Shown one piece after another: positions 22,400 to 25,976 of a DNA stretch of 64,000 nucleotides. Below the pieces are notes generated by a model that saw only the letters and a program-made list of their open reading frames with translations, made no database searches and had not been told where the DNA came from. How positions within the stretch are numbered: position 1 is the stretch's first letter; each line of letters begins with the position of its first letter. The stretch spans positions 256,001 through 320,000 of the forward strand of contig CAVSGG010000005.1 in the NCBI GenBank assembly GCA_963727455.1, given 5' to 3'. Made by a program: the position numbers and the translations under genes. This stretch comes from Candidatus Krumholzibacteriota bacterium. GTDB taxonomy: Bacteria > Krumholzibacteriota > Krumholzibacteriia > JAJRXK01.

Positions 22400-23157
22400 C
22401 GGCATTTCTGCTTCTCGCCGCATGGGCGCCGTCTTCGGCGAAGCCCAGGGCGAGCTGGACTACTGGCAGGTCCTGGCCATGGACCGCGTGGCGTTCAGGA
22501 TCAAGACCGTGGCATCTGATGCCCGCAACCGACGAACCGGGCCAAATCATGGTATACGGAGATCGCTACGGCTACTTGCGTGCCAATCAGGTAAGCGGGG
22601 ACGGCACTACGGAAATTTGGCGCAGCCGTACCTCTGGACGGCGAGGTTTGGCAGGTAATGGTCGAGGACCTCGATGGGGATGGACGGGTCGAGATTCTCT
22701 GCCGCACGAAGGGCGGCCGCATTTACGTTTACGACGATACCTTCAATCCCCGATGGGAAAATTTGCGCGAGGATTACCAGGAAATCTCGGCCATGGCCAT
22801 CGCCAACATGGACGATGACCCGCCTACGAGATTGGTCATTCTCGGCGACGGACATATCGATTATATCGACGGCAAGGATTTCACTCGTCAGTACCGTTCG
22901 ACACAGACTTATCAAGCTACCGAGCTGGCGGTGGGCAACGTGGACAGCGATGCGAATCTGGAGATCGTGCTCAACACGGGGCTGGTGCTTGGATGGAGTG
23001 AGACTGGAACCCAAGTGGAGTACTGACGAGTTCGGTTCGATGATCGAATTACTGGACATCGACGGGGACGGGATCGAGGAGATTCTGGGTTACGAAAACA
23101 ATGGCGAGAATGATGATTTACGAGGCGGATCAGCAGCAGGAAAAACCGGTACGTTGA
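22369..23157 (+). CDS. Secreted FG-GAP/VCBS-repeat protein (frameshifted)
   Basis: RBS AGGAGG, signal peptide, repeats DLDGDGRVEI, NMDDDP, NVDSDANLEI and DIDGDGIEEI. Probable stop TGA at 23155-23157. Confidence 0.7.
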
Positions 23158-23170
23158 AAAGGGTCGCGTC

Positions 23171-23210
23171 AAAGAAAAACCCCGTCGAGTATCGTGCTCG
23201 ACGGGGTTTT
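23171..23210. terminator. Bidirectional intrinsic terminator
   Basis: aaagaaaaa-ccccgtcgag...ctcgacgggg-tttt between convergent units. The stronger U-tract is on the minus strand. Confidence 0.85.
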
Positions 23211-23227
23211 AAACACTCAGGTCTTCG

Positions 23228-25901
23228 TCACGTTCCCAAGTCATTTGCGTAACCACCAAAAGATGTCGATTCCCAAGATGAAGAGGCTTGCGATCGTTGC
23301 GAGATGCATGATTGCTCCCTCGTGTAGGGCCCCGTGCGGAGTGTGACGAGACGCACCCCGCAAATGGGCCACTGACGGATTGTCAAGACACTCGTGGCTG
23401 CAGAAAGCGTGCCAGATGATCCATCCTGGCGGAACTTGAGAACCAACAAGGTCTTGTCGTCCGTCGCCTCACCCGTCGAGAACTGCGAAACGGCTTGAAA
23501 GACGGCGTCCCGAATGGATTTTGCCTCCTGATCCAGCTTCGCTGTCAGTTCCTGGACGAAGCGGGGCAGTCCGAAGGAGTCCTGGTTCTCATCCTCTTCG
23601 TCGACGATGCCGTCGCTATAGGCCGCCACGACATCGCCCACGTGAAGGCGGATCCACCCATCGAAGTAATGGCTGTTGGGCAGCACTCCGAGTACCGGGC
23701 CGCCGCGGGTCAGGCTCTCCACCCGTCCTTCAGCGTGACGGCACCACAGGGGAGGATCGATTCCCGCGGTGCAGTAGTTGAGTACGCCATTGTGAGGGTC
23801 GAAGATGGCGAGGAAGCAGGCGATGAAGTGATGCTCGGCCGTCATGCCGTGGACCTGTTGATTGAAATGGTCCGCTACTTCGGCACAGCTCATGAATGGT
23901 CGCGCAGTCTCGCGCAGCGCAGCGCGGACGCTGCTCATGAGCAAGCTCGCGGGAACGCCCTTCCCCGAGGCATCGGCCACCGCGAGCAAAATGCGTTGGT
24001 CGGGTAATTCGAAGTAATCGAAGACATCACCGCCAATTTGGCGGCAGGGGATCATGCGACCGCTAAGGGAAAAATTGCTGCTCTCCAAATCCCGCGGCGG
24101 AAGCAATTGGGCCTGGATCTCCCGTGCCAGATCCATCTCTGCCGCGATTCGTTCGCGCACCAGATCCTCGCGAATGCATCATCGCGTTTTCCAGGCTCAT
24201 GCCGGCCTGGTTGAGTAGCTGCCGGAAATGGTAGAGCGCGACTTCGCCGTAGATCTCTCCGGCTATGGCGGGTCCCACCACCAACAACGCAAGTGGCCGG
24301 TCACGACCCCACAGCGGGGCGAGGATCGTTGCGTCGGTCGTGCTGAGAAACTGCTGGCTCGCAGGATCCAGTCGGAAGGGACGGGGTCCGGTCAGCTCGG
24401 GTTCGACCAGGAGGGGTTCCCGGCGGGAGAGCGCTGCCGTGAGCATGGAGGAATCGGGCTCGAGGGTCGGGGGTAGGTTGGAGTACTGCGGGATCCGCCT
24501 TCTGCTGAATGAGGCGCAGGGTGTCATTCCTCGACGCGGTAGAAGCAAAGGTAGCGCGCGGGCAGGAGCTCTCCGCCGTGAGAACAGAGGAACTCGGCGA
24601 GCTCCTCGGGGGAGCGGGTTCCCGTGAGTTCGGCCGTGAGCTCGCCCGCGCGCTCACGGAGTTCGAGCTGACCGGGATAGAAGATCCGGTCGATGATCCG
24701 CGCCACCGGGCGGCGTGCCGGCATGGCCGCGAAGCTCAGAGCCGAAGATGGCCACGACGGCGACGAGGTAGATCATCCCCCGGCTGATTCCCGCCAGCTG
24801 CGGTCCGAGTCCCAAGAAGAGAAGCGCGCCCAGAGCGGCCAGGGGCAGAGCCAAAGTGAGTGCGATCATCGACTGCCGCGCCAGATAGGCGATGTCGATC
24901 GTGCCGGTGCGGAGCAGGGCGACGCTGAAGGAGAGAGGAACGAAAGGCAGCAGGAGCAGGCTGGCCTCTTCCAAGGGGAGCGGGATTGGCGGGCCAGAGC
25001 TGTCTCGCCACCGTCGCAAGGGTGATGGGAAGAATTCCGAGAATCATTCCCACCAGGGCGAGGCGGAGCTTACTCCACAGCACCCAGTGGTTCTCACGGC
25101 GAATTTTGCGATCGAAGACGACGATCGCTGCCACGATGTAGACTGCGAAGAGAATCGCGGTCGCGATGCTTACCTGCTTGACCAAAGCGCTGTCGGGCGG
25201 GACGGAGACGAGATAGATGTAGAGATGAAAGAGAGCGAGTACCTAGCGGTGGGGCCAGCAGCCAACGGTGCTCGGGCCGCCCGAAACTCCGGCACCTTCG
25301 GGAAAGATCAAAAAGAAGCGCAAGAAGGCGGCGGGCAAAAGAGCCCTGATGCGTTTCGTAGCAATTCCTCCAAGCCCATGACCAAGACCCACGGAAAGGT
25401 CGGCAAATCCAAGAGGAGAATCGCGAAGAGGATGCAGATCGCGTAGAAGAGTCTGCCCAGGGCATCGTCACGGCGCAAGAAGGTGATGAAGCCGAGAAAG
25501 ACGAAGAGCAGACCCATCGAAGTGGCGAGATAATCTCGAAACCTGCGACTGGGGCTGCGTGTTCCAATCGTCATCTGCAACTTCACTGACTCGGATTGAC
25601 GGCGTAGCTGGAGTTCGACCTTGTCGCCGGCACGTAGCCCGAAGGATGCGGCCTGATAGGAGGGGTAATCGGGCGTATTCTGTCCATTCAGTGCGAGGAG
25701 AACGTCCTCGGGGAGAACCCCAGCGCGATCCGCCGGCCCGTCTCTCGCGAACCGAGACGATTTCCGTTTCCCTCCAATGACATTCCGGGGTCGGGCCGGT
25801 GCCACAGCTCTACCGCCCCGGGAATCTCGAGCGCGATGAGAAGGGGGGCGATCGCCAGCAAGATGCGTCGACTGATTCGCGTGGCGCTGGAGCCGGTGCA
25901 T
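23228..25901 (-). CDS. Membrane sensor phosphatase: PDZ + multi-TM + GAF-like + PP2C/SpoIIE (multiple frameshifts; true stop probably near 23420)
   Basis: PDZ (DGPADRAGVLPEDVLLALNG), several TM fragments, GAF-like segment, PP2C motifs AREIQ..LLP, GGDVFD, VADASGKG, YSDGI and DDKT. Confidence 0.85.
23241..23309 (-). CDS. Small hydrophobic peptide MHLATIASLFILGIDIFWWLRK (22 aa)
   Basis: RBS GAGGGAG 5 nt before ATG, own sigma54 promoter upstream, terminator 30 nt downstream. Below the ORF-track cut-off. Confidence 0.65.
   Translation of the reverse strand: MHLATIASLFILGIDIFWWLRK
23399..23415 (-). promoter_or_regulatory. sigma54 (-24/-12) promoter of the small-peptide unit
   Basis: Minus strand reads CTGGCACGCTTTCTGCA, a near-consensus match to TGGCACG-N4-TTGCA. 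Confidence 0.75.
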
Positions 25902-25976
25902 CTCGATGGGATCCTTCGCTGAGGTTCAGAGTCGGGAGAGAGCTGAAGAGTTCACGTGGTCCAAGCTCGCGCTGAT

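Follow-up and report, generated by a model that had tools for sequence, protein, structure and literature searches.

Within a 64,000-nt stretch of a Candidatus Krumholzibacteriota genome (assembly GCA_963727455.1, contig CAVSGG010000005.1, positions 256,001 to 320,000; hereafter the window), the minus strand carries at 23241..23309 a gene for a 22-residue hydrophobic peptide, next to the 3' end of a gene for a large membrane-bound sensor phosphatase of the SpoIIE/PP2C type. Judged by the codon patterns of its relatives, the peptide gene is very probably real and translated. Peptide and phosphatase are present together and absent together across the phylum: every family that has the phosphatase (eight families) also has the peptide, and one family, designated f3 among the families f1 to f9, is without both. 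The most economical reading of these sequences, which we put forward tentatively, would make the peptide a membrane-associated modulator of the linked phosphatase.

The peptide gene and the phosphatase frame that crosses it

The initial annotation had described an independent minus-strand transcription unit, consisting of a -24/-12 promoter, a leader of about 80 nt with a hairpin, the ribosome-binding site GAGGGAG, a small open reading frame (ORF) and a terminator, and all of these elements were found in this order in the sequence and its predicted fold. The sigma54-type -24/-12 box TGGCACGCTTTCTGCA (TGGCAC-GCTTT-CTGCA, 23399..23414), recognized by its sequence and by its conservation in relatives, has its GG doublet at 23413-23412 and its GC doublet at 23401-23400. 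If C23400 counts as position -12, transcription is predicted to start at about 23388, giving a leader of 79 nt (23310..23388) with the folded hairpin inside at 23328-23370. The Shine-Dalgarno sequence GAGGGAG (23315..23321) stands 5 nt 5' of the ATG at 23309, and the ORF then runs through 22 codons (MHLATIASLFILGIDIFWWLRK) to a TGA stop at 23243-23241, an assignment based on translation, conservation and codon pattern. Overlapping this stop in an AUGA junction is a mini-ORF, MTWERDEDLSV followed by a stop (23209..23244), which reaches the foot of the terminator stem. The intrinsic terminator (23171..23210) has a 14-bp stem (23210-23176), a 7-nt loop and the U-run UUUUUCUUU.

The 245-nt stretch 23415-23171 folds at -91.3 kcal/mol (z = -3.53, with 1 of 200 shuffled sequences doing equally well), and the leader and terminator hairpins are both present in the minimum free energy and the centroid structures, the latter hairpin being G+C-rich and followed by the U-run. 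A consensus scanner run over 22500-24500 reported no terminators and no sigma70 promoters on either strand; it probably missed the terminator because A:U pairs lengthen the stem into the T-run. A long-range pairing between CCGUCA in the leader and UGACG behind the ORF, seen in some folds, was too weak to call.

Evidence for translation comes from relatives. The PP2C piece of the window was searched against 41 related genomes, and 20 orthologous loci were fetched; directly 3' of the best PP2C match, 17 of these carry a small ORF that ends in [IVLA]D[IL][FL]WWLR[KR] and a stop, and in the remaining three genomes (G014, G019 and G039) the motif stands about 120 nt 3' of another PP2C paralogue. 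The codon analysis used 17 loci seeded on PP2C, without selection on the peptide. In their last eight codons, second positions are invariant and third positions carry 0.9-1.9 bits, with Arg written as CGC, CGT, CGG, CGA, AGG or AGA and Leu as TTA, TTG, CTG or CTT. Such synonymous variation around fixed second positions indicates a translated sequence with selection on its amino acids. Start and stop codons are kept in relatives, as is a Shine-Dalgarno sequence 5' of the ATG (GAGGGAG, GGAGG or AAGGGGG). Four public DNA runs yielded contigs with 90-97% identity to the window; these are free of indels in the small ORF and differ there by one conservative substitution (I6M) and one synonymous one.

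Members of the peptide family are 15-23 residues long and end in D[IL][FLWY]WW[LMI][RK]. They consist of a hydrophobic body, a single invariant Asp and a C-terminal tail of the FWWLRK type; the conserved part is the C-terminal eight residues, and the hydrophobic N-terminal stretch before them varies. At the N-terminus the peptides are neutral or acidic, at the C-terminus basic. The hydrophobic run covers 16-19 residues in families f1 and f2 and about 10-14 in f4, f5, f7 and f8. Searches of Pfam and NCBIfam with the 22-aa and 43-aa forms, at E values up to 10, returned no family, and Rfam gave no match above threshold, the sub-threshold matches all falling on the terminator hairpin. Among 5.8 billion predicted proteins, the 43-aa form found a single match at E up to 10, a 60-aa 'hypothetical protein', in a search that requires several shared 5-residue words and may let relatives of the DLFWW type escape. 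A literature search, as far as the portions of papers it returned extend, found none with FWWLRK, DLFWWLRK or DIFWWLRK, only unrelated synthetic WWLRK peptides; the listed titles and opening lines of abstracts on the phylum include none on the peptide gene.

Phosphatase orthologues are about 840 aa long and encoded in one frame, with PDZ, GAF and SpoIIE domains (Pfam) and about nine hydrophobic segments. Their layout is a first transmembrane segment (TM1), a PDZ domain outside the cytoplasm (between TM1 and TM2), about eight transmembrane segments, and then cytoplasmic GAF and SpoIIE/PP2C domains. In the window, this gene is split over several frames of the minus strand between 23228 and 25901, among them a PDZ piece at 25901-25308 and the C-terminal SpoIIE piece at 23228..24160 (Pfam SpoIIE, residues 53-243). 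As had been stated at the outset, the frame 24160-23228 reads through the unit, crossing the small ORF in a different frame. This open frame is the ground for supposing that there is no peptide gene at all, only a C-terminal extension of PP2C and its 3' end, with the small ORF and the promoter box present by chance, and two relatives (G173 and G177) likewise lack a separating stop. We regard such a coincidence as scarcely conceivable. In the window frame of 310 residues, the Pfam SpoIIE match goes no further than residue 243; when the frame is matched to relatives, the similarity breaks off near residue 245-263 or is interrupted by stops. PP2C in relatives terminates 60-160 nt before the peptide ATG, and the peptide frame shows amino-acid selection. 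Moreover, the contigs from all four public runs are without one base at 23387 or 23389, the removal of which brings TGA 23385-23383 into frame, as in the nearest genome. A genuine C-terminal extension of PP2C is rejected on account of its lack of conservation, the earlier stops in relatives and the stop restored in these four assemblies. The initial annotation had named conservation of the extension in place of the ORF as counting against its reading; the comparison came out the other way, in favour of that reading.

The same four runs are also one base short at 24171 or 24173, precisely the point at which the window PP2C frame breaks, and show further single-base differences upstream, near 25742-25969. 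As these sequences stand, the phosphatase gene of the window is either frame-broken (decaying) or mis-assembled, and the read-through over the peptide gene appears to be local. In the two relatives without a separating stop (loci L152 in G173 and L153 in G177), the open frames reach 897 and 914 aa; in the third genome of their genus (G176) a stop closes the phosphatase frame 72 nt ahead of the peptide ATG. On the other side of the phosphatase gene, a gene for an M28 peptidase with a FlgD_ig-type C-terminal domain often precedes it on the same strand in f1 and f2 (L025-L030 and relatives).

Distribution across the phylum

A strict DNA pattern for the peptide C-terminus matched 94 of 208 genomes of the phylum, 93 of them once and one twice, against 1 match for the reversed-pattern control. 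A degenerate DNA pattern (D-[ILM]-F-W-W-L-R-[KR]-stop), applied to species-representative genomes, returned 109 stretches, 80 of which were examined. In 53 of these 80 loci, the same strand has a SpoIIE match whose end is no more than 600 nt upstream, and 59 contain an ATG-started hydrophobic ORF of the family form; most of the other 21 look like chance matches, of which about 13 are expected over all 109 stretches. The records that match the pattern are labelled Candidatus Krumholzibacteriota or Krumholzibacteriia, Candidatus Eisenbacteria and 'uncultured Fibrobacteraceae'.

The N-terminal module of the phosphatase (PDZ and about eight transmembrane segments) has strong matches in families f1, f2 and f4-f9. 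In f3, matches to it are at the level of the PDZ domain only, and a relaxed pattern applied to five f3 genomes yielded one match without a hydrophobic ORF, hence no real peptide. Twenty further genomes were chosen from lineages without the strict pattern, and the DNA 3' of the phosphatase orthologue was fetched. A variant peptide was present within 420 nt after the orthologue in 19 of them and about 400 nt downstream in the twentieth, as well as in three more f7 genomes and in the one f9 genome; examples are MDPITVFIGLSIVDLLWWLRK, MISWLWIIDLLWWLR, MRIELVDLLWWLRKR, MFWIYLIDLLWWLRR and MLPIAIFLIIDIFWWMR. At two loci labelled Eisenbacteria, the phosphatase and peptide genes are still neighbours but divergent, which speaks for a promoter of the peptide gene's own and for a link in function, not simply for co-transcription.

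This distribution bears on the suggestion, made in the initial annotation, that the peptide is a type I toxin. Type I toxins such as Ibs, TisB and Ldr/Fst are short hydrophobic peptides with long structured mRNA leaders, and members of the Ibs family are as small as 18-19 aa, so size and hydrophobicity (15-23 residues, an aromatic and basic C-terminus, a long structured leader) fit well. Synthetic Trp/Arg/Lys peptides containing WWLRK also occur in antimicrobial-peptide papers, to judge from the excerpts found. A membrane-damaging peptide of this kind could be silenced by low basal sigma54 activity together with the structured leader until a signal releases growth arrest or lysis. Type I toxins are, however, usually patchy in distribution and multi-copy, whereas this gene is single-copy in 93 of the 94 matched genomes, always beside the orthologous phosphatase, in synteny across eight families, and its C-terminal octapeptide is conserved far beyond the needs of membrane insertion. 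The scan also found no sigma70-like sites and no antisense promoter, a weak argument since promoter types of the host may differ. A toxin is therefore unlikely. A precursor of a ribosomally synthesized and post-translationally modified peptide, another kind of product that had been considered, finds no support in the neighbourhoods: domain scans around the peptide loci revealed no recurring modification enzymes, and no recurring exporter or processing genes.

The C-terminal motif is also seen in records with labels outside the phylum. At seven loci (L043, L077, L083, L096, L104, L110 and L116), labelled Patescibacteria, Parcubacteria, Komeilibacteria or Gammaproteobacteria, an ORF ending ..IDLFWWLR[KR] follows a small receiver-like gene, which is homologous among five of the Patescibacteria- or Parcubacteria-labelled loci. 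Two tandem copies of the peptide are present at L116, and genes for a ZIP transporter and Fur lie near three of the seven. These loci could reflect shared ancestry, gene transfer or mis-binned contigs.

Promoter, leader and 3' end

The box in the window agrees with the pattern TGGCAC-N5-TTGCA at 10 of 11 specified positions, with GG and GC exactly 10 nt apart. Across 90 non-identical peptide loci, a box with at least 8/11 agreements lies 50-210 nt 5' of the ATG in 53, compared with 4/90 on the antisense strand, 4/88 at 1 kb upstream and 2/88 downstream; with at least 9/11 agreements it is found at 20/90 loci and at none in the antisense, 1-kb-upstream or downstream controls, although the loci come from related genomes and these counts are not independent trials. 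In the family to which the window belongs, the box overlaps the final PP2C codons, and coding constraint alone could explain its conservation there. In other families, PP2C stops earlier and the box stands in intergenic DNA (e.g. CGGTCCCCTTCTTGCT, AGGCACGCTGTATGCA, GGGCACAAGGTATGCA and AGGAACATTTTTTGCA). Its spacing to the ATG is steady: for f4, f5, f7 and f8 it is 69-94 nt, while f2 has mostly 123-135 nt. The corresponding machinery is encoded as well: rpoN (PF04552) has one match in the genome of the window and matches in 204 of the 208 genomes of the phylum, and Sigma54_activat (PF00158) has 26 matches in the same genome, 19 of them strong. ORF, ribosome-binding site and promoter-like box are thus all conserved in relatives, the first with the synonymous bias that had been named as the sign to look for.

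Two observations weigh against the promoter assignment. Boxes with at least 10/11 agreements are not enriched genome-wide, 21 being found where composition predicts about 41; a single such box is common by chance, so the case rests on conservation at the orthologous place. Furthermore, the f2 leader contains a second conserved bipartite element, CTCAAG-N13-GGCCGA, which may represent another kind of promoter or else an RNA motif. Taken together, the conserved position and spacing suggest that the peptide gene is probably sigma54-dependent.

The f2 element, in the form CTCAAG-N13/14-GGCCGA(T/A), was located at loci L038-L115, 55-135 nt 5' of the ATG, often twice at a distance of about 70 nt; the first copy shares bases with the sigma54-like box in its -12 part, and the element is absent from the window's own genus. 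A further box in the genome of the window, on contig C5 near 404549, is TGGCACGCCGTCTGCA, which shares 14/16 bases with the window box. It stands 76 nt 5' of a type IV pilin-like ORF (MKVKNNSGFTLIELM...), just after a sigma54 activator gene (C5:403415-403915). A near-identical box before a pilin gene, downstream of a gene for an enhancer-binding protein, is a classic sigma54 arrangement, and this pilin-like gene is likely to be under PilR/sigma54 control. Within the window, a strong Sigma54_activat match is present at 1796-2296 on the plus strand, in an open frame of 473 aa about 21 kb from the peptide gene.

Downstream of the promoter, all four genus members have a stable leader hairpin in the corresponding position, built from differing sequences, and the terminator (hairpin and T-run) is kept in relatives with compensating changes. 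The 3' end of the peptide gene was compared over 55 pairs of phosphatase and peptide. Of the 45 peptides that end in Lys, 41 use AAA for it, compared with 26% AAA among the Lys codons of the linked phosphatase genes, and the stop is TGA in 44 of the 55. Where these codons form AAAUGA, the overlapping AUG opens a mini-ORF (42/55), which has five codons in 29 of the 42 and 11 codons in the window. It terminates at the base of the terminator stem and is kept open in environmental variants, including one in which its own stop changes from TAA to TGA.

Such features would suit a cis-acting leader or arrest peptide, on which the ribosome stalls at the UGA beside the terminator and so controls read-through or the fate of the mRNA. 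Conservation is concentrated in the last 8-9 codons, the whole peptide would fit the ribosomal exit tunnel, and the tandem Trp codons, the bias to AAA, the preference for TGA and the placing of the mini-ORF against the terminator foot all agree with stalling at this point. However, the N-terminal part is consistently hydrophobic, which stalling does not need, and there is no conserved downstream gene to regulate: the gene beyond the terminator is convergent in f1 and differs in kind and strand between loci in f2, a convergent FG-GAP gene and DsbD on either strand being among those seen. A purely cis-acting role is decidedly improbable. An attenuator of a downstream gene was rejected, no same-strand gene 3' of the terminator being conserved.

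Possible function and relation to known systems

The independent sigma54-type unit for a hidden small peptide proposed in the initial annotation has stood the comparison as far as its structure goes, each of its parts being conserved across the phylum; its functional suggestions are still conjecture. Among these, a regulator of a membrane protein agrees best with the linkage to the phosphatase. On this reading, a self-contained micro-peptide gene would be expressed from its own sigma54 promoter in the last codons of the phosphatase gene and closed by its own intrinsic terminator. An enhancer-binding protein, together with sigma54, would switch on synthesis of the peptide, which would then be lodged in, or attached to, the inner membrane, its basic tail facing the cytoplasm, where the positive-inside rule places a basic C-terminus. 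There it would act on the membrane module of the phosphatase as a small regulatory subunit, and the outcome would be inducible or feedback control of the phosphatase.

Several observations count against this proposal. The shortest peptides (15 aa, e.g. MRIELVDLLWWLRKR) count only about 10-12 hydrophobic residues, which is not enough for a transmembrane helix of normal length. The box has no enhancer-binding protein assigned to it. Patescibacteria- and Parcubacteria-labelled metagenome-assembled genomes share the C-terminal motif (e.g. MEREIVIVVLTLIDLFWWLRR) without such a phosphatase nearby, and its place there beside a receiver-like gene suggests that the target of the peptide may be more general. 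A likeness between the peptide and TM2 of the phosphatase (..IGWWVL.RR) was the sole hhalign hit and is not significant (P = 0.75); the peptide as a paralogue or mimic of TM2 was accordingly set aside and is kept as a lead only. A complex prediction with phosphatase residues 1-420 and the peptide gave a score of 0.00, which is evidence neither way, a 22-residue peptide being outside the calibration of the tool.

In kind, the locus would pair the gene of a micro-protein with a signalling protein, the particulars here being the sigma54 promoter and a sensor of PP2C type. By analogy, rap-phr appears to be the closest parallel in gene layout and MgrB-PhoQ the closest in logic. The internal promoter of phr genes uses the alternative sigma factor sigma-H. 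According to the excerpt of PMC5199041 consulted, phr directly follows rap, and a promoter internal to rap sometimes drives it; phr ORFs were sought at 35-120 aa with a signal sequence. Both systems have a small same-strand ORF 3' of a phosphatase or regulator gene, an internal promoter and an active part near the peptide C-terminus. They differ in that Rap is a cytoplasmic TPR protein and the phosphatase described here a membrane protein of PDZ-8TM-GAF-SpoIIE/PP2C layout, in that the peptide of 15-23 aa lacks a secretion signal and a basic N-terminus and is too short to hold both a signal and a mature part, and in the sigma54-type promoter; there is no sequence similarity.

MgrB, a membrane protein of 47 aa that belongs to the PhoQ/PhoP regulon, acts as an inhibitor of PhoQ, as the portion of PMC8404706 consulted describes. 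It resembles the present peptide, as proposed here from the genes, in being a very small membrane protein whose target is a membrane-located sensor in a phospho-signalling pathway. The two are not homologous, the presumed target here is a PP2C phosphatase and not a histidine kinase, and the peptide is half the size of MgrB or less and is encoded beside its target. Prli42 of the Listeria stressosome is, in the incomplete account available, another tiny membrane protein that feeds a partner-switching pathway with a PP2C-type phosphatase; it is likewise without homology to our peptide and is not encoded beside the phosphatase. The ComS/XIP and SHP peptides of streptococci provide a further likeness, their ORFs of 17-30 aa encoding a body that is hydrophobic, a conserved Asp and, at the C-terminus, an active part with WW. 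Their precursors start basic and export the C-terminal part, whereas the peptide considered here has a neutral or acidic N-terminus and a basic C-terminus, and its neighbour is a phosphatase rather than an Rgg/ComR regulator. Prli42 has 31 aa and acts as an anchor, and we know of no sigma54 control of it.

These parallels raise the alternative that the peptide is the precursor of an exported signal, its free C-terminus being read by the periplasmic PDZ domain, in the manner of Rap-Phr and the double-Trp ComS/XIP. PDZ domains bind C-terminal peptides, and the conserved part here is exactly the C-terminal eight residues, behind a variable hydrophobic part; the PDZ domain, standing between TM1 and TM2, is outside the cytoplasm. 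The ligands of PDZ domains usually end in a hydrophobic residue, unlike the Arg-Lys end of this peptide. Gene order and an internal promoter for an alternative sigma factor mirror rap-phr, and the tandem copies at one Patescibacteria-labelled locus recall the duplicated phr genes, both as far as the consulted part of PMC5199041 describes them. Nonetheless, the peptide has no Sec signal, its basic C-terminus would be kept cytoplasmic by the positive-inside rule, and no exporter or processing gene recurs nearby, which makes an exported signal less likely still than a toxin. In its most specific form, a cognate ligand-receptor pair, the sigma54-induced peptide would release its C-terminal octapeptide outside, the periplasmic PDZ domain would read it, and the phosphatase would set the phosphorylation of a partner switch; we see a slim chance of this. 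It would amount to peptide self-signalling or cell-cell signalling in a diderm candidate phylum, with a related form wired to a receiver-domain protein in Patescibacteria-labelled genomes.

Gene callers pass over ORFs this short, and the locus also illustrates how a single inserted base in an assembly can bury a real gene under the false extension of its neighbour. The peptide gene is nevertheless among the most tightly conserved features beside a large sensor phosphatase in an uncultured phylum, and it comes with a testable regulatory signature of sigma54 box, structured leader and own terminator. Returning to the peptide as a modulator of the phosphatase, a PP2C-type sensor would, if this is correct, join the short list of signalling proteins under micro-protein control, and the locus would be a second, unrelated case of the phosphatase-plus-peptide layout known from Rap-Phr.

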